A stretch of DNA of 64,000 nt from Candidatus Nomurabacteria bacterium (lineage in GTDB: Bacteria; Patescibacteriota; Minisyncoccia; Phycocordibacterales; UBA9973), in contig CALRAL010000002.1 in the NCBI GenBank assembly GCA_943350875.1, forward strand, positions 68,221 to 132,220. Direction: 5' to 3'. Positions 3,839 through 42,924 of the stretch are shown one piece after another. The notes below the pieces were generated by a model, which saw only the letters and a list, made by a program, of their open reading frames with translations, was not told where the DNA came from and did not search any database. Positions within the stretch are counted from its first letter, which is position 1, and every line of letters starts with the position of its first letter. Position numbers and translations under genes: made by a program.

Positions 3839-4423
3839 ATGAAACATCCAAAAGAAGAGAGGACATATGTGATGATAAAGCCGGACGGTGTCAGAAAAGG
3901 CTTGACTGGGGAGATTATAAAGCGTTTTGAGCAACGTGATTTAAAGATTGTAGCTCTTGAGATGTTCCAACCTAAGCATGATCAATTAAATGATCATTAT
4001 CCAAAAAGTGAAGAATGGATTACGAGACTAGGCCATAAAACTCTTTCCACTTATCAAAAGTATGGCTATGATGCAATGTTAGATTTTGGAACTTTAGAAC
4101 CAGAAAAAATAGGCCCTGAGATTCGTAAATGGCTTATTGATTATATGAAAACAGCTCCATTAGTAAAAATGGTAGTACAAGGAGTACATGCGGTGGATGT
4201 TGTGCGTAAAATTGCTGGACAGACTATGCCATATGTAGCTGAGATGGGAACAATTCGAGGAGATTTCTCTATAGATAGTCCTGCACTAGCTAACAAAGAA
4301 AAAAGAGCTGTGATGAATATTGTGCACTGTTCAGAAACTCCAGAAGAAGCAGAACATGAGATAAAACACTGGTTTGGAGCAACTAAATTACATGAATATA
4401 AACGTTTTGGAGTGGATGAATAA
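3839..4423 (+). CDS. ndk: nucleoside diphosphate kinase with ~40-aa insertion
   Basis: ERTYVMIKPDGV, TIRGDF, NIVHCSETPEEAEHEI motifs. Confidence 0.8.
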   Translation: MKHPKEERTYVMIKPDGVRKGLTGEIIKRFEQRDLKIVALEMFQPKHDQLNDHYPKSEEWITRLGHKTLSTYQKYGYDAMLDFGTLEPEKIGPEIRKWLIDYMKTAPLVKMVVQGVHAVDVVRKIAGQTMPYVAEMGTIRGDFSIDSPALANKEKRAVMNIVHCSETPEEAEHEIKHWFGATKLHEYKRFGVDE

Positions 4424-4442
4424 AAAATTTGTATTCAGAAAC

Positions 4443-4482
4443 AAAAAAGGAGTCTCGTCTAGTTGCGGGACTTTTTGTTTTT
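4443..4482 (+). terminator. rho-independent terminator after ndk
   Basis: GGAGTCTCG..CGGGACT hairpin with one G-U pair, followed by a T-run. Confidence 0.45.
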
Positions 4483-4685
4483 GTTAGAATTTAAGTAGGG
4501 TTATTTCCGATTATTACCTAGAACAATATTTTAAGGGAGTCTCGATCACTTTTAACCTTGGTTAAAAATGTCTGACACCCACCTAAGCGTGAGCTATGGT
4601 AATATATCTGAAATAGTCCTAAGAAGAGATTCGCCATTAAATTTTTCAGGCGGATTTTTTCTTTTAAATAAGGTATAATTACAAA

Positions 4686-9042: not shown

Positions 9043-9237
9043 TTAATTAAATGGTAATAAGTGACTCTTTGGCTTGTTCTTAATTACAAAATCATTACCT
9101 TTTCGGCCGGCCAATTGTTTAGTCCTCTTTTGTTTTGCATTGAAATGATTAAAGCCTGCTTTCCTAGAAAGCACCTTGCCATTCTTGGTAAGTTTTAATC
9201 TTTTGCTAAACGATTTGTTTGTTTTCATTCCTTTCAT
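9043..9237 (-). CDS. rpmI: 50S ribosomal protein L35
   Basis: MKTNKSFSKRLKLTKNGKV... basic small protein in the infC-rpmI-rplT context. Confidence 0.85.
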   Translation of the reverse strand: MKGMKTNKSFSKRLKLTKNGKVLSRKAGFNHFNAKQKRTKQLAGRKGNDFVIKNKPKSHLLPFN

Positions 9238-13559: not shown

Positions 13560-13805
13560 ATGTTTAGAATATATGTGTTAAAAAGTTTAAAAAATGGAAA
13601 GAGATATGTTGGTTATACGAGTAAAATGTCTGAAAAAAGACTAATCGAACACAATTCAGGATCTAATGCTTTTACAAGACAAAATAGGCCTTTTGTGCTA
13701 ATCTATACCGAGGAATATAGTACAAAAACTGAAGCAATAAAAAGAGAAATTTTTTTGAAATCGGGACAAGGAAGAAAATTTTTAGATAAAATTATCCGCG
13801 TGTAG
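13560..13805 (+). CDS. small GIY-YIG nuclease-family protein
   Basis: IYVLKSLKNGKRYVGYT (GIY...YIG) motif; the stop codon overlaps the first bases of the downstream tRNA. Confidence 0.6.
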   Translation: MFRIYVLKSLKNGKRYVGYTSKMSEKRLIEHNSGSNAFTRQNRPFVLIYTEEYSTKTEAIKREIFLKSGQGRKFLDKIIRV

Positions 13806-13868
13806 CTCAGTTGGTAGAGCAATCCGCTTATACCGGATCGGTCCCACGTTCGAGTCGTGGCACGCGGA
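13796..13868 (+). tRNA. tRNA with anticodon UAU (Ile-like, reads AUA)
   Basis: Manual cloverleaf. Acceptor CCGCGTG/CACGCGG, D-arm TAGCTCAGTTGGTAGAGC, anticodon stem ATCCG/CGGAT with loop CTTATAC, T-arm CCACG-TTCGAGT-CGTGG, discriminator A, no encoded CCA. Confidence 0.7.
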
Positions 13869-13918
13869 CTTGACAGAAAAGTGCATTAGGTGTATACTAT
13901 GTATACATTTATAATTAA

Positions 13919-18976: not shown

Positions 18977-19034
18977 GTTATCCACATTGAGATTTTGTAA
19001 TGTAGATGTATGATGTAGAAGTGTTTAACAAATA

Positions 19035-19200
19035 AATAGGTTCATATTGGGGAAGTGAGGTGAAAGTCCTCCACAGTGCCGCTACGGTAAGTCCGATTTT
19101 GATTGGACAAGTCCGAATACCAATATGATATGTAGTCCCGAGCAGGAATTTAAATACTTAACGTATTTTTAGCCAAATGACTCCTCGGAAGGAGTTTTTT
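19035..19200 (+). promoter_or_regulatory. cobalamin (B12) riboswitch with terminator/SD-sequestering expression platform
   Basis: GGGGAAGTGAGGTGAAAGTCCTCCACAGTGCCGCTACGGTAAGTCCG matches the conserved GGGAA..GGTGAAAnTCC...CCGCTAC.GTAAG core. A downstream AGTCCCGAGCAGGAA B12-box-like segment follows. Hairpin GACTCCTCGGAAGGAGT plus T8 includes the AAGGAG SD, 10 nt before the ATG at 19206. Confidence 0.7.
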
Positions 19201-19205
19201 TATTT

Positions 19206-19634
19206 ATGAAAACAGAAAAATACAAAATTATATTTATAACCGTCGTCTTCATTTTAGTGTTGGTTTTATTATATTCATATAAAAATATCTCTGTTTCTGT
19301 TGAAAATAAAGGCATGAAGAATGTAGATTCTTCTACAGGATCTAAAAAAGAAAATATTTCTGCAACTTTGATTGTTGGGGGAAAAAAAATACTTTTAACA
19401 TCCCAAATAAATTCATCTTTATATGATGTTCTTTTAGAAGCAAAGAAAAATAATCAGATAAATTTTACTGGTAAAGTTTACCCTTTGCTTGGTTTTTTTG
19501 TAGATAGTATTGATAATTTGAAAAATAAAGATGGAAAGTATTTGTTTTATTATATAAACGGTAAAGAGGCATCTGTCGGTGTTTCTAATTATATACTCAA
19601 AGACGGGGACGTGATTGAGTGGAAATTAAAATGA
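19206..19634 (+). CDS. membrane-anchored DUF4430-domain protein (transcobalamin/intrinsic-factor beta-domain-like; putative B12-binding)
   Basis: N-terminal TM anchor, then LFYYINGKEASVGVSNYILKDGDVIEWKL, characteristic of DUF4430. Lies downstream of the B12 riboswitch, with an ATGA overlap to the next gene. Confidence 0.6.
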   Translation: MKTEKYKIIFITVVFILVLVLLYSYKNISVSVENKGMKNVDSSTGSKKENISATLIVGGKKILLTSQINSSLYDVLLEAKKNNQINFTGKVYPLLGFFVDSIDNLKNKDGKYLFYYINGKEASVGVSNYILKDGDVIEWKLK

Positions 19635-21460
19635 AAAAGATATTTTTAGGATTTAGTATTTTTATGAGCTTATTTGTGTTTAATTTTACTTATGCGGAAG
19701 ATGTGGTTCCAGATCCAGTTCTTACTAGCAGTATTACTATCCGTGATGGAGGCAATGTAATTTTTACAGGTGTTATTCCAATCAATTCAGATAGTACTGT
19801 TTTGTCTTTATTAAATGATGCTGACACTTTGAGCCCTGATTTTAATGTTTCTAATATACAGAATTTTTCTTTTGGGGCTTACTTAAAATGCATAACAGAT
19901 ATAAACGGAGAAAGATGTGATAATTGGCAGTATGCAGTTAACAATCTTTATACTTTTTCAAGTATAGATCAATATAAATTAAATGGGGGAGAAAACGTTT
20001 ATATATATTTTGGACCACAAAACAAAGTTATCCTTAGCTCAAATAATATAAATACTAACAATATTTTGACTGTTATAGCGCAAAAATATAATTATCAAAA
20101 TAATACCTGGGAGATAAGGACTGATGTAACTGTTGGTTTAACACAACCAGATTTACAACCCAACCCAAATAACAATTGGTTACCACCATTAGAAATAAAA
20201 ACTAATTTAGTTGATGAAAATGGTCAAGTTACTTTTTCGTCAATATCTGTTGGTTCTTATGATGTTGGAGTTCAGGAAGATGGGTATTTCCCTACCGAAA
20301 AACTAGATGTTATTTCTGCTCCTGTGATAGAGCATCATAGCTCTGGCGGTGGTAGAGCTTATATACTACCGCCAAAGCCAGTTTTTTCTACGCAAAACGC
20401 GATTAATTATTTAAAAAGTTTACAAGTAAATGATGGATCTTTTGGTGGATCTGATATGTACACTGATTGGGTGGGGATTGCTTTGTCTGCCGGAGGGGTA
20501 GCAGATAGTTCTACTAATAGTATAATTTCATATTTTAGTTTACATCCTCTAAAAAGTTCACTTTTGACTGATATTGAACGTAGGGCAATGACACTTCTAG
20601 CCTTGGGGCAGGATCCATACTCATTTAATAATACAGATTATATTTTTTTAATTTTGAAGAATTTTGACGGAATACAATTTGGTGATAAAGATCTAGTGAA
20701 TGATGATATTTTTGCTCTCATTCCACTTAGCGCTTCAGGATATAAAATAGATGATGAGGTTATTTCAAAAGATATCAATTTTATTCTTTCGAAACAAAAG
20801 ACAGATGGTTCTTGGGAAGAAAGTGTAGATGTGACTTCCGCCTCGATCCAAGCATTATCTTTATTTAACTCTTTGCCTACTGTTTCAGACGCGCTTTCAA
20901 AAGCTAGCCTTTATGTTATGAATTCACAAAAGGATGATGGTGGTTGGGGGAACGTTTATTCTACTAGTTGGGCGGTGCAAGCAGGGAATGCCTTAAATAT
21001 TATTTATACCAAGAATGGACATACAGGACTTGATTATTTTGCAAATAATCAGATAAGTGATGGGGGAGTTTTGTCACTAAATGAAACTTTAGAAAATAGA
21101 GTTTGGGCCACGAGCTATGTTATCCCTGCTATGCTTAGCAAAACTTGGAATAGTATTTTTCATCAAGTTCTTAAACCAGTAAAAGTAGATACTAAAGATG
21201 TCGTTTCTAAGATAGTAGAAAATAAATTAAAAGAAAAAGTTGTAGATAAAAAGATAGATAATATAATAAGTATTATAAAAAAAGTTAAAAAAGAGATTGT
21301 TGTTAGTCCTGAAACAGAGAAAATAGAAACAAAAAATATGCTTACAGCTTCAGCCATAGAAAGCCAGACGCGTGTTACTCAAAATGAAACTCCTTCGTTT
21401 TGGCATGAACTTTTTGCAGGAGTAGGGGATATCTTGAGAGTTCTGCATCTTCTTCGATAA
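19631..21460 (+). CDS. secreted protein: N-terminal DUF4430-like domain plus alpha/alpha-toroid (prenyltransferase/terpene-cyclase-like repeat) domain; putative cobalamin-capture protein
   Basis: Signal peptide (MKKIFLGFSIFMSLFVFNFTYA). A second DUF4430-like pattern (NWQYAVNNLYTF...YKLNGGENVYIYFG). Repeated DGSW/DDGGW/DGGV motifs typical of alpha6/alpha6 toroid repeats. Translationally coupled to the upstream DUF4430 gene. Confidence 0.5.
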   Translation: MKKIFLGFSIFMSLFVFNFTYAEDVVPDPVLTSSITIRDGGNVIFTGVIPINSDSTVLSLLNDADTLSPDFNVSNIQNFSFGAYLKCITDINGERCDNWQYAVNNLYTFSSIDQYKLNGGENVYIYFGPQNKVILSSNNINTNNILTVIAQKYNYQNNTWEIRTDVTVGLTQPDLQPNPNNNWLPPLEIKTNLVDENGQVTFSSISVGSYDVGVQEDGYFPTEKLDVISAPVIEHHSSGGGRAYILPPKPVFSTQNAINYLKSLQVNDGSFGGSDMYTDWVGIALSAGGVADSSTNSIISYFSLHPLKSSLLTDIERRAMTLLALGQDPYSFNNTDYIFLILKNFDGIQFGDKDLVNDDIFALIPLSASGYKIDDEVISKDINFILSKQKTDGSWEESVDVTSASIQALSLFNSLPTVSDALSKASLYVMNSQKDDGGWGNVYSTSWAVQAGNALNIIYTKNGHTGLDYFANNQISDGGVLSLNETLENRVWATSYVIPAMLSKTWNSIFHQVLKPVKVDTKDVVSKIVENKLKEKVVDKKIDNIISIIKKVKKEIVVSPETEKIETKNMLTASAIESQTRVTQNETPSFWHELFAGVGDILRVLHLLR

Positions 21461-24102: not shown

Positions 24103-24858
24103 TTATTTAGATATTGGAATACTAAAGAAAAAGGTTGTGCCGGTGTCTTTTTCACTTTCAAACCACATTTTTCCCCCATGTTCTTCTATTATTTTCTTTG
24201 CATTGAAAAGTCCTATTCCCGAACCGATAACATCTTTCTTCCTGGCTTCAGGATCGCGGTAAAACTTTTCAAAAATCCTACTCTTATTTTCATCCGGTAC
24301 ACATATCCCTATATCTTTAATAGAAAATTCTATTATTTTATCTTTTTCTCTGAGGGCCATAAATATTTTGCCATGCCCGTTGCTATATTTTATGGCATTC
24401 TCGAGCAAGTTTTGGAAAACAACTCTTAACTTTTCTTTGTCGCCATGCACTAGAGAAAGTCTTATTTCTGGTTTTAGAAAAATCATCTGGATGCCTTTAG
24501 CATTTGCTTCACCAGAAAAATCAAAGATTGAATTATCTATCAATTCTGTCAAATCAACTTCTGAGAAAATATATTTCTTTTCGGCAATGTCTTCTGTTTT
24601 GTTTGCTAGGAGTAATTCACTTACAATACCTATGGCTCGGTCATTGCTGTCGTACGCTTTGCTTATCAAATTTTCTTGTTCAGCTGTGAGTTTACCCAAG
24701 TCGCCATCGAGGAACATTTTGATAATCCATTTGAGTCCTGATAGGGCAGTGCGTATCTGATGCGCGCTCATAGAGACGATGTCCGCTTTGACTGCGCACA
24801 GCTCTGCCATCTTTTTATTTTCTTCCATCAACTTTTTTATTTCTGTCTCTTTGTCCAT
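24103..24858 (-). CDS. cytoplasmic sensor histidine kinase (HisKA + HATPase_c)
   Basis: H-box MSAHQIRTALSGL; N, G1 (DIGICV), G2 (GSGIGL) boxes; no TM segments. Confidence 0.7.
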   Translation of the reverse strand: MDKETEIKKLMEENKKMAELCAVKADIVSMSAHQIRTALSGLKWIIKMFLDGDLGKLTAEQENLISKAYDSNDRAIGIVSELLLANKTEDIAEKKYIFSEVDLTELIDNSIFDFSGEANAKGIQMIFLKPEIRLSLVHGDKEKLRVVFQNLLENAIKYSNGHGKIFMALREKDKIIEFSIKDIGICVPDENKSRIFEKFYRDPEARKKDVIGSGIGLFNAKKIIEEHGGKMWFESEKDTGTTFFFSIPISK

Positions 24859-24882
24859 GGGGATATTATAGCATTAATTCTG

Positions 24883-24969
24883 CGGATGAGGTGAGATTCG
24901 AACTCACGGTCCTTTTAAGGGGACGGCGGTTTAGTAAACCGCTGGCTTAAACCACTTGCCTACTCATCC
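24883..24969 (-). tRNA. type II (long variable arm) tRNA, Ser-like, apparent anticodon ACU
   Basis: Manual fold of the minus strand. Acceptor GGATGAG/CTCATCC, discriminator G, anticodon stem GCGGT/ACCGC with loop TTACTAA, long variable arm, T-arm GTGAG-TTCGAAT-CTCAC. Confidence 0.6.
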
Positions 24970-25018
24970 TAAAATCTATAGATTATACATTATTCTATTA
25001 TTGATGTATAATGGATAT

Positions 25019-26056
25019 ATGTCTGAGTTGTTTACATATAATAGATTAAAATTTAATAAAAAGAAAGCACAGAGAAACTTTATTTTGAAAGCAGAAAAGA
25101 TTTTAAATTTAACAGATTTGGAGTTATCTAATAAATTGGGTATAAGTCGTAGAACAATTTATGAATGGAAAAATGAAAGGATTACTATTTCCCAAATAGC
25201 TGCAATAAAAATATCTAAATGGTCTAATATATCTATACCTAAAAATCACCAAATTATTGATTGGCGATTACATTTTCAAAAAGCTGGAAAAATAGGAGGA
25301 AGAAATAGATTTAATATATATGGAAATGTTGCTATGGATGAAAATTATAGAAAAGAAAAATGGAGGCAATGGTGGAATATGATTGGGCAACATAAAAAAG
25401 TAGCTCCAGGTTTTCAGTCGCTTATTAAAATAAAAATACCAAGAAAAAACCAATTACTTGCTGAATTTGTCGGTATCATGCTTGGTGATGGGGGAATAAG
25501 TAAATATCACACTACTATTACTTTATATAGTAAAGAAAAACAGTATATTTCATTTGTGAGTAAAGTAATAAATAAACTGTTTAATCTTAAACCAAAAATA
25601 TATAAACTTAAATATGCAAATGCGGTAGATATTGTTGTAAACAGAAAAAAACTAGTAGATTTCTGCCAGACTATAGGTCTTGTAATAGGAAATAAAATTA
25701 AACAACAAATAGATATCCCACTATGGATTAAAAAGAATAAAGGATTTTCTAGAGCTTGTATAAAAGGTTTAATAGATACAGATGGATGTTTTTATAATAA
25801 TTCTTATTATGTAAACGGTAAAAAATACTCTTATTTAAAAATTGCTTTTACAAGTGCTTCTTTGCCATTAGTAAACTCTGTGGCTCAAACTTTGATAAAT
25901 ATTGGAATAAATGCAAGAATAAGTAAAGATCAACGAGATGTTCGTATAGAAAATAGTAAATATGTGTTTAAGTATATAAAGGAGATAGGAACACATAATC
26001 ATAAGCATTTAGAGAAGATAAAAAAATGGAAAAATAGAGAGAATGTGTTAGAGTAA
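25019..26056 (+). CDS. free-standing double-motif LAGLIDADG homing-endonuclease-like protein with N-terminal HTH
   Basis: VGIMLGDGGIS and IKGLIDTDGCFY motifs; HTH LGISRRTIYEW; a TATAAT lies 7 nt upstream of the ATG (leaderless-like). Confidence 0.65.
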   Translation: MSELFTYNRLKFNKKKAQRNFILKAEKILNLTDLELSNKLGISRRTIYEWKNERITISQIAAIKISKWSNISIPKNHQIIDWRLHFQKAGKIGGRNRFNIYGNVAMDENYRKEKWRQWWNMIGQHKKVAPGFQSLIKIKIPRKNQLLAEFVGIMLGDGGISKYHTTITLYSKEKQYISFVSKVINKLFNLKPKIYKLKYANAVDIVVNRKKLVDFCQTIGLVIGNKIKQQIDIPLWIKKNKGFSRACIKGLIDTDGCFYNNSYYVNGKKYSYLKIAFTSASLPLVNSVAQTLINIGINARISKDQRDVRIENSKYVFKYIKEIGTHNHKHLEKIKKWKNRENVLE

Positions 26057-26069
26057 TAAAGTTCGACAA

Positions 26070-26156
26070 GGAGCCGTGGGAGAGCGGTCTAATCTACATC
26101 TTTGCTAAAGATGCAGGGGTTAAACCCCCTCGAGGGTTCGAATCCCTCCGGCTCCG
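26070..26156 (+). tRNA. tRNA-Ser (GCU)
   Basis: Acceptor GGAGCCG/CGGCTCC, discriminator G, anticodon stem CATCT/AGATG with loop TTGCTAA, long variable arm, T-arm AGGG-TTCGAAT-CCCT. Confidence 0.8.
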
Positions 26157-26176
26157 CTAGATTTAATATATTGTTT

Positions 26177-42766: not shown

Positions 42767-42853
42767 GGAACCGTCGCATAGTGGTCTAGTGCACCACCTT
42801 GGAAAGGTGGCAGGCTCGAAAGGGTCTCGAGAGTTCAAATCTCTCCGGTTCCG
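42767..42853 (+). tRNA. tRNA-Ser (GGA)
   Basis: Acceptor GGAACCG/CGGTTCC, discriminator G, anticodon stem CCACC/GGTGG with loop TTGGAAA, long variable arm, T-arm AGAG-TTCAAAT-CTCT. Confidence 0.8.
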
Positions 42854-42924
42854 CAGAGTGAAGAAAATCATCTTTTATGATATAATAGGAACTGTCGTAT
42901 TTATAATAGTGAAATTATAAAAAA

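Follow-up and report, generated by a model that had tools for sequence, protein, structure and literature searches.

The 64,000-nucleotide stretch of DNA analysed here, called the window below, is part of contig CALRAL010000002.1 of a Candidatus Nomurabacteria bacterium (assembly GCA_943350875.1, positions 68,221 to 132,220 of the forward strand). It probably carries a functional second serine isoacceptor for the AGY codons, a tRNA-Ser with the anticodon ACU, plus a site-specific homing endonuclease lodged in the promoter spacer between this gene and that of tRNA-Ser(GCU). On balance, and with less assurance, we also favour the view that a serine tRNA with an unmodified A34, in the box split between Ser and Arg, takes part in the normal translation of Nomurabacteria and related Paceibacteria. 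Such a tRNA contradicts a rule stated as universal: a 2026 preprint describes seven ANN tRNAs of two-fold boxes as universally absent (bioRxiv 10.64898/2026.05.15.725136), and reviews describe A34 as universally missing from the Ser/Arg split box. Our full-text literature search returned no relevant report of a natural tRNA-Ser(ACU).

The tRNA-Ser(ACU) Gene and Its Partner

ARAGORN called five RNA genes in the window, namely a tmRNA, tRNA-Ile(UAU), tRNA-Ser(ACU), tRNA-Ser(GCU), and tRNA-Ser(GGA), and placed the three serine genes at 24882-24969 (−), 26070-26157 (+), and 42767-42854 (+), respectively. All three had been noticed in an earlier reading made from the sequence alone (the sequence-only reading), which had described the first as a minus-strand type II tRNA with an ACU anticodon; the calls agree with it. 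The ACU gene (24883-24969, minus strand) folds as a clean type II cloverleaf (z −4.3) and passes the threshold of the Rfam tRNA model RF00005 with 55.9 bits, the gathering score being 29 bits. It has an acceptor stem of 7 bp, a D stem of 3 bp, an anticodon stem of 5 bp, a long variable arm, the T loop UUCGAAU, and the discriminator G73, with no encoded CCA; its anticodon loop UUACUAA gives U33, A34, and A37. The identity set of bacterial SerRS consists of a long variable arm, G73, and the pairs G1-C72, G2-C71, and A3-U70. These features are present in the ACU tRNA and are common to the GCU and GGA serine tRNAs of the window.

The tRNA-Ser(GCU) gene (26070-26156, plus strand), also announced by the sequence-only reading, is the ordinary AGY isoacceptor and the conserved partner of the ACU gene, the two being paired in 77 independently sampled loci. 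A whole-window Rfam run at the gathering threshold missed it; as a focused run gave 51.7 bits, this miss is an artefact of the speed filter. The ACU and GCU tRNAs of the window differ in every stem.

Conservation in Relatives and Metagenomes

Relatives were retrieved through the neighbouring RecG protein, which gave 80 loci from metagenome-assembled genomes labelled Candidatus Nomurabacteria, Paceibacterota, Minisyncoccia, or Patescibacteria; their best-matching RecG segments are about 68-77% identical to that of the window. Metagenomes were scanned with the anticodon arm as query, any base being allowed at position 34, and at least 120 contigs were returned; among the matches listed, 80 have A34 and 40 have G34. 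The resulting set comprises 120 independent tRNA-Ser(ACU) genes from Nomurabacteria/Paceibacteria genomes and metagenomes: 36 near recG (the window and the 80 related genomes), 7 beside endonuclease homologues, and 77 on metagenome contigs. The 36 recG-linked and 7 endonuclease-adjacent genes form a subset of 43 that was collected blind to the anticodon, and 34 of these were aligned for covariation.

The ACU gene was found in 35 of the 80 RecG loci, head to head with tRNA-Ser(GCU) in 33 of them, and 7 further copies adjoin endonuclease homologues; this arrangement recurs on dozens of independent contigs, which is more than chance. The anticodon loop reads TTACTAA in 42 of the 43 anticodon-blind genes, the exception (L085) having A38C. 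In the 34-gene alignment, 99.9% of the cloverleaf cells are paired; 12 of the 24 stem pairs show compensatory two-sided changes (155 cells), spread over all five helices, and none shows a one-sided change. When the partners were slid by 1-3 columns as a control, pairing fell to 31-62%, and none of 500 shuffles reached the observed covariation score. Among the orthologues, G1, G2, and A3 are invariant and the A3-U70 pair is broken in one sequence; conserved as well are G1-C72, G2-C71, G73, G18-G19, the T loop, and the long variable arm. The 77 ARAGORN-called metagenome genes amount, among the matches listed, to about 60 distinct sequences with a median pairwise identity of 81% and a minimum of 66%. 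The gene is, thus, under strong purifying selection rather than in decay, and this comparative evidence supports one of the two possibilities that the sequence-only reading had left side by side, that of a genuinely unusual decoding tRNA.

The G34 tRNAs that share the anticodon arm belong to other organisms, where they lie in large tRNA arrays that include Arg(ACG). Since they reach up to 87% identity to the ACU tRNAs, the ACU gene looks like an ordinary tRNA-Ser(GCU) backbone with G34A, and we propose that it descended from such a backbone through this change. The ACU and GCU tRNAs are old and distinct paralogues. Nor is the ACU tRNA confined to the head-to-head setting: on more divergent backbones, it forms tandems with Ser(UGA), Ser(GCU), or Ser(GGA) genes. 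On the most divergent ACU-bearing contig (L175), the nearest named matches of RpiA are Chloroflexi proteins at about 50% identity, which is uninformative for taxonomy. In one further spacer (L071, about 4409-4635), a masked run of N is followed by a second partial tRNA-Ser(ACU) copy, a possible tandem duplication or assembly problem.

One has to ask whether the gene serves translation at all. It could be a structural or recombination element, such as a homology arm, an endonuclease target, a promoter insulator, or a source of small RNA, or else a slowly decaying pseudogene: tRNA-Ser(GCU) alone can read both AGY codons, so that an ACU tRNA is unneeded in principle, the gene is lacking or truncated at some loci (see below), and all the endonuclease homologues examined adjoin it. 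We regard this explanation as quite unlikely, as it has to face compensatory changes in all five helices with no single-sided ones, and an anticodon loop, a T loop, a G18-G19, and Ser-type acceptor pairs that are essentially invariant; moreover, most independently sampled pairs are free of the endonuclease, and the tandem copies on divergent backbones stand apart from the head-to-head arrangement. A pseudogene would not have kept A34 fixed across sequences only 66-81% identical.

Decoding of the AGY Codons

In the AT-rich genome of the window, AGU is the commoner AGY codon (205 AGU versus 87 AGC), and AGA is frequent as well (195). The genetic code is standard: when RecG proteins are aligned, conserved Arg/Lys columns hold AGA and AGG, and Ser columns hold AGU and AGC. 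A reassignment of AGA/AGG to Ser, which would make an ICU anticodon harmless, was considered and ruled out by these alignments.

We propose that A34 is most likely kept unmodified and that the ACU tRNA reads AGU by Watson-Crick pairing, while tRNA-Ser(GCU) would cover AGC and back up AGU. An unmodified A34 is the likeliest state because Candidate Phyla Radiation (CPR) bacteria are reported to lack tRNA-Arg(ACG), using GCG instead (PMC8629427), and so presumably lack TadA. Laboratory constructs point the same way: an orthogonal tRNA with an ACU anticodon read AGU (9.4%), AGC and AGA not detectably, and AGG only in traces (PMC11066159), and an engineered, over-expressed Ser-tRNA(ACU) was tolerated in E. 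coli, with better growth measures in at least two media (bioRxiv 10.64898/2026.05.15.725136). For the natural gene, we infer expression, charging with serine, the unmodified A34, and the restriction to AGU.

The alternative is that a TadA-like enzyme deaminates ACU to ICU, an anticodon that would read AGU, AGC, and potentially AGA, in the manner of tRNA-Arg(ICG) in its own box. The U33-A34-C35 stretch shares the UAC core of the TadA substrate tRNA-Arg(ACG) and differs at position 36 only; moreover, in E. coli, a sequenced A34 tRNA from a two-fold box, that of Phe, was converted to I34 (bioRxiv 10.64898/2026.05.15.725136). However, inosine wobble requires the U-, C-, and A-ending codons of a box to be synonymous, which those of the AGN box are not, and ICU would misread AGA, a frequent codon that behaves like Arg/Lys in the alignments. 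Neither the 64-kb window nor 1.23 Mb of ACU-bearing loci yielded a tRNA-Arg(ACG) or a match to tadA or to a cytidine/adenosine-deaminase motif, a test of low power. Inosine is, hence, an unlikely explanation in our opinion; as I34 would misread AGA and the lineage reportedly has no inosine system, an unmodified A34 reading AGU is the most economical one.

A LAGLIDADG Endonuclease between the Two tRNA Genes

The open reading frame (ORF) that lies between the two tRNA genes (25019-26056, plus strand) encodes a protein of 345 amino acids, one fewer than the sequence-only reading had counted, and was rightly assigned by it to the LAGLIDADG proteins: the Pfam LAGLIDADG_3 match has an E-value of 1.6e-14 (54.4 bits versus a cut-off of 22.5). 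The two motifs that had been claimed are both there, the first as EFVGIMLGDG with the catalytic Asp157 (25463-25492, plus strand) and the second as CIKGLIDTDGCF with Asp253 and the catalytic Asp255 (25757-25792, plus strand); Asp157 and Asp253 are invariant in an alignment of 46 homologues (A2). The helix-turn-helix (HTH) expected at the N-terminus corresponds to an XRE-type region of about residues 12-75 (25052-25243, plus strand), for which we found sub-threshold Pfam matches to HTH_3 and HTH_19, profile matches of the N-terminal 75 or so residues to the HTH structures of CylR2, HigA, and MBF (E 0.004-0.03), and helices at residues 17-69 in the AlphaFold2 model. This model (pLDDT 89.3) predicts a LAGLIDADG fold: in Foldseek, I-Tsp061I ranks first (2dch; E 2e-11, TM-score 0.79), ahead of I-DmoI and the VMA-intein endonucleases, and the probability is 1.00 for I-Tsp061I, I-DmoI, I-AniI, I-OnuI, and PI-SceI.

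Homologues of the protein number 551, mostly of 345-348 amino acids. The base composition is foreign to the locus: the GC content is 26-27% inside the gene and the inserted element versus 35-42% in the flanks, a second tally giving 26% for the gene and about 37% for the flanks. Rfam searches of the spacer at permissive E-values (up to 1), covering intron families and other known RNAs, gave tRNAs only, and no intein splicing domains were found in the ORF. Predicted promoters and tRNA genes border the ORF, and neither an intron nor an intein surrounds it, so that the endonuclease is free-standing; it is a member of the LAGLIDADG family with an unusual target and gene overlap.

Site Specificity and Occupancy of the Spacer

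All ten occurrences of the endonuclease examined outside the window (L040, L081-L087, L126, L182, and L194, the seven loci L081-L087 having been reached via six homologues 44-80% identical) lie between a tRNA-Ser(ACU) gene on the opposite strand and a downstream tRNA-Ser(GCU) gene. The 5' end of tRNA-Ser(ACU) is about 45-50 nt before the endonuclease ATG in most of them. The family is specific to the ACU/GCU spacer. Of 77 ACU/GCU pairs chosen independently of the endonuclease, 4 contain it and 73 do not, an occupancy of about 5% of the sites. The empty sites that the sequence-only reading had suggested looking for in related genomes, thus, do exist; endonuclease-free spacers are mostly of 60-240 bp, with a minority holding unrelated larger insertions, and the endonuclease is a presence/absence polymorphism at one defined genomic site. 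Decayed copies document its loss: one locus (L079) retains a 47-amino-acid N-terminal relic adjoining a truncated ACU tRNA, and in two others (L017, L192) the endonuclease promoter is joined to the last 15 or so nt of the ORF.

These counts bear on the other possibility of the sequence-only reading, namely an endonuclease-associated tRNA-Ser duplication of which the ACU gene would be the diverged copy. Two tRNA-Ser genes do flank the endonuclease in the window; however, the pair predates and outnumbers it, the two tRNAs differ in all stems, and the ACU backbone is nearer to the tRNA-Ser(GCU) of other organisms than to its own partner. The existence of unoccupied sites refutes this scenario, to which we give next to no credence.

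Three side observations were made on the same spacers. The ACU/GCU pair as a whole is turned round with respect to recG in nearly half of the RecG loci (L001-L080), and the genes that flank it vary between genomes, which makes the pair a rearrangement hot spot. In L058 (about 9050-9176), and also in L125, L076, L019, L023, L065, L026, and L113, the 5' end of tRNA-Ser(GCU) is duplicated over 12 nt, and a strongly folding insert of about 125 nt (z −5.1) separates this duplicate from the tRNA. The insert matches nothing in Rfam and resembles a small mobile or structured element with tRNA-Ser(GCU) as its target. A second kind of insertion, GC-rich and about 110 nt long, adjoins tRNA-Ser(ACU) in spacers of 190-206 bp (L003, L035, L064, L069, and L049) and ends in a duplicate of the first 18 or so nt of that tRNA.

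A Predicted Bidirectional tRNA Promoter Split by the Insertion

The shortest unoccupied spacers measure 61-70 bp, and about 50 of the unoccupied spacers have in common the core GAGTATAACAGAAAAA-ATGGAAAAA-N7-8-AATATGYTARAGTAATTAAGTT. Read from the bottom strand, the left part of this core gives TGTTATACT, an extended −10 box directed towards the ACU tRNA; towards the GCU tRNA, the right part presents TGGAAA, 16-17 nt, and TGnTAGAGT. The pattern ATGGAAAAA-N7-8-AATATGYTARAGTAAT is kept 41-65 nt upstream of tRNA-Ser(GCU) in about 50 endonuclease-free spacers. The core has the appearance of a compact back-to-back tRNA promoter of about 70 bp, and the endonuclease insertion would split this conserved bidirectional promoter.

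In the window, the predicted −10 box of tRNA-Ser(ACU) is TGTATAAT (24982-24989, minus strand), picked by a consensus scan 12 nt upstream of the tRNA 5' end; its equivalent, the reverse complement of GTATAACA or CTATACA, is kept at the same distance in empty and occupied spacers. Comparison with endonuclease-free spacers (e.g., L039, L045, and L022), together with the GC contrast, places the inserted element at approximately 24990-26025 (plus strand), with a left junction after TATA(A)CA and a right junction before AAAAATGGAAAAA that is ambiguous by a few A residues. On its left side, the element brings TGTATAAT, the mirror image of the ACU −10 box, with which it forms an inverted repeat of 17 nt. 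Target-site duplications and terminal repeats were looked for around the endonuclease gene, and only chance AT-rich repeats and the mirror-image −10 boxes were seen.

The TATAAT box that the sequence-only reading had placed 7 nt upstream of the endonuclease ATG is indeed there (25007-25012, plus strand; also found by the consensus scan), ending 6 nt before the ATG, and the motif TGTATAATGGA-N4-ATG is conserved in three occupied loci (L083, L084, and L086). Given this distance, a leaderless mRNA is predicted, and the endonuclease is probably expressed in this form; the same −10-to-ATG geometry recurs at host genes. The GC content of the window is 35%; Shine-Dalgarno motifs are almost absent from it, and numerous −10 boxes stand directly before start codons: a Shine-Dalgarno-like motif was seen in 2 of 55 window ORFs, and in several ORFs about 6 nt separate the ATG from the end of a TATAAT-like box, such as TGCTATAAT at 24865-24873 (minus strand) before the histidine-kinase gene at 24103-24858. 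To judge from these motifs, leaderless mRNAs are probably common in this genome.

On the right side, the predicted tRNA-Ser(GCU) promoter (26027-26054, plus strand), assigned by conservation, comprises a −35 box TGGAAA (26027-26032), a 16-nt spacer, and the extended −10 box TGTTAGAGT (26046-26054). This sequence encodes the last ten or so codons of the endonuclease, whose TAA stop (26054-26056) overlaps the −10 box; tRNA-Ser(GCU) starts only 13 nt after the stop because the ORF runs into its promoter. Four other loci (L086, L040, L126, and L194) share this organization, with the last ten or so codons (KWKNxxNxLE) and the stop supplied by the GCU promoter. In a second class (L081-L085, L182, and many proteins ending in KVALNGKAAVC), the ORF enters a distinct tRNA-Ser(GCU) by 38 nt, and the endonuclease stop codon is the UAA of the tRNA anticodon loop. 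The single-site family, the split bidirectional promoter, and the 3' end of the ORF encoded by the tRNA-Ser(GCU) promoter had all escaped the sequence-only reading.

The distinct tRNA belongs to a third tRNA-Ser(GCU) lineage (L081 3962-4052, L083 4010-4100, L040 3140-3229, L084, L085, L004, L017, and L079), which starts with GGAAGGTTGCGC; its D region is shortened, its score with the Rfam tRNA model is 49-55 bits, and its first 38 nt are the 3' end of the endonuclease ORF, the stop of which is the UAA of the anticodon loop. The idea that this "type-3" tRNA-Ser(GCU) is cargo of the endonuclease is weakened by its occurrence in endonuclease-free spacers (L114, L123, L130, and L146), which retain about 10 nt resembling the endonuclease 3' end.

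From this anatomy we suggest the following mechanism. The endonuclease would presumably spread by cutting the conserved core of unoccupied promoters (around GTATAACAG/AAAAATGGAAAAA), repair from the occupied allele would copy the element, and the flanking tRNA genes would serve as homology arms. The element would supply its own −10 box, the mirror of the ACU −10 box on the other strand, and expression of the endonuclease may be tied to tRNA transcription and RNase P processing. The cleavage site, homing, and the function of the promoters are all deduced from the layout of the site.

The same layout could belong to a protein domesticated to regulate the two tRNA genes, as a DNA-binding repressor or in the way of a maturase, rather than to an active mobile endonuclease. 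Its N-terminal XRE-type HTH is repressor-like, the position of the gene coincides with the predicted bidirectional promoter and its mirror-image −10 boxes, and the family keeps a constant length and a single site over 44-100% identity. Occupancy of only about 5% of the sites is, however, hard to square with a function useful to the host; some copies have internal deletions or survive as remnants, the two catalytic Asp residues are conserved, and the GC content of the gene is below that of the host. We, therefore, hold a regulatory role to be improbable.

Weighing the Interpretation

Several findings count against an ACU tRNA in normal use accompanied by an active homing endonuclease, and they are gathered here. 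The ACU gene is missing beside tRNA-Ser(GCU) in 13 of 48 recG-linked loci and truncated in another (L079), so that it is either dispensable in some lineages or located elsewhere there; it is, therefore, helpful rather than essential, or found elsewhere in the genomes without an adjacent copy. ACU-bearing loci are AT-richer and use more AGU, and the raw difference in AGU usage (0.655 versus 0.524 in loci without the ACU gene) is largely explained by AT content; after control for AT content and the other NNY boxes, the association of the AGU excess with the presence of ACU is marginal (p = 0.051). On the side of the endonuclease, Asp255 is not strictly invariant, being kept in at least 90% of the 46 homologues, and the confinement to a single site could also be due to long vertical inheritance and repeated loss instead of active homing. 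Lastly, the consensus promoter scan did not rise above shuffled controls in this AT-rich DNA, which is why the promoter assignments rest on conservation; the scan picks the mirror TATACA-17-TATAAT pair and misses the conserved TGGAAA-16-TAGAGT element. Nevertheless, a functional ACU isoacceptor with a homing endonuclease in its promoter spacer accounts better than any rival explanation for the covariation, the endonuclease-free sites, the standard code, and the 5% occupancy.

Other Features of the Window

Away from this locus, the tRNA-Ile(UAU) gene lies at 13796-13869 (plus strand), and 58 of the 80 related loci also have it near recG. Among the Ile codons of the window, AUA is used most (554 versus 542 ATT). 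These observations suggest that AUA is decoded without TilS, as in Mycoplasma mobile. An AdoCbl-II (cobalamin) riboswitch was detected at 19032-19129 (plus strand; 38.5 bits versus a threshold of 36.5), upstream of ORFs spanning 19206-21460.

Significance and Comparison with Known Systems

Why anticodons starting with A are almost entirely absent is a long-standing puzzle of the genetic code, the absence being strictest in split boxes; the explanations now offered, misreading by an unmodified A34 or by inosine, have been tested with engineered tRNAs only. If our interpretation is true, tRNA-Ser(ACU) would be the first natural, clade-wide exception to the exclusion of ANN anticodons from two-fold boxes, and this exclusion would be contingent, perhaps hinging on the presence of TadA or on competition by tRNAs for neighbouring codons, rather than an intrinsic constraint of decoding. 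A lineage that has kept such a tRNA over deep divergence, apparently without an inosine system, offers a direct test bed: is A34 unmodified, is AGU the only codon read, how is misreading of AGR (Arg) avoided, and does the loss of TadA lift the prohibition? In practice, annotation pipelines may flag ACU genes as odd or as pseudogenes. The endonuclease would provide a well-defined example of a homing element that targets a bidirectional tRNA promoter, with an ORF ending in the promoter or in the tRNA; it would be useful for studying how the expression of a selfish gene is coupled to tRNA transcription and processing, and may be a source of new meganuclease specificity.

Among natural bacterial A34 tRNAs, three sources (PMC11066159, PMC8007984, bioRxiv 10.64898/2026.05.15.725136) cite the tRNA-Thr(AGU) of Mycoplasma, in which A34 stays unmodified, and the tRNA-Leu(AAG) or tRNA-Thr(AGU) of some Firmicutes. 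The ACU tRNA resembles them in having a genomic A34 outside Arg(ACG) in a reduced or AT-rich bacterium. They belong, however, to four-fold boxes, in which misreading is synonymous, whereas ACU lies in the Ser/Arg split box; unlike them, it coexists with a G34 isoacceptor and does not replace it. With the tRNA-Arg(ACG)/TadA system, the ACU tRNA shares A34-C35 and the preceding U33, but it has U36 instead of G, is a Ser tRNA, belongs to a lineage reportedly without an ACG tRNA, and would misread the Arg codon AGA if it carried inosine. The same anticodon is found in the engineered Ser-tRNA(ACU) of E. coli (bioRxiv 10.64898/2026.05.15.725136) and the orthogonal M. jannaschii tRNA(ACU) (PMC11066159), which are translationally active, read AGU with strong discrimination against AGC and AGA, and can be neutral or beneficial; these are laboratory constructs, whereas the Nomurabacteria gene is naturally fixed and conserved in its clade.

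The endonuclease shares its predicted fold, its two LAGLIDADG motifs, and the catalytic Asp residues with I-Tsp061I, I-DmoI, and the VMA-intein endonucleases; unlike them, it is free-standing and has an extra N-terminal HTH region of about 125 residues, and its predicted target is an intergenic tRNA promoter rather than an rRNA or protein-coding gene. Phage T4 reportedly has a free-standing GIY-YIG endonuclease, SegB, in its tRNA gene region, and free-standing LAGLIDADG ORFs are described between tRNA genes of fungal mitochondrial genomes. These have in common with the window endonuclease an intron-less gene lodged between tRNA genes, conserved tRNA sequence probably giving the target or the homology for spread; ours belongs to another nuclease family than SegB, differs in its host domain, being carried on a bacterial chromosome, and has an ORF that overlaps a tRNA promoter or a tRNA. 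LAGLIDADG genes are also said to occur within rRNA insertions of CPR bacteria, that is, in the same phylum-level host group and from the same nuclease superfamily; in contrast to these, the endonuclease described here lies neither in rRNA nor in an intron and is fused to an HTH region.

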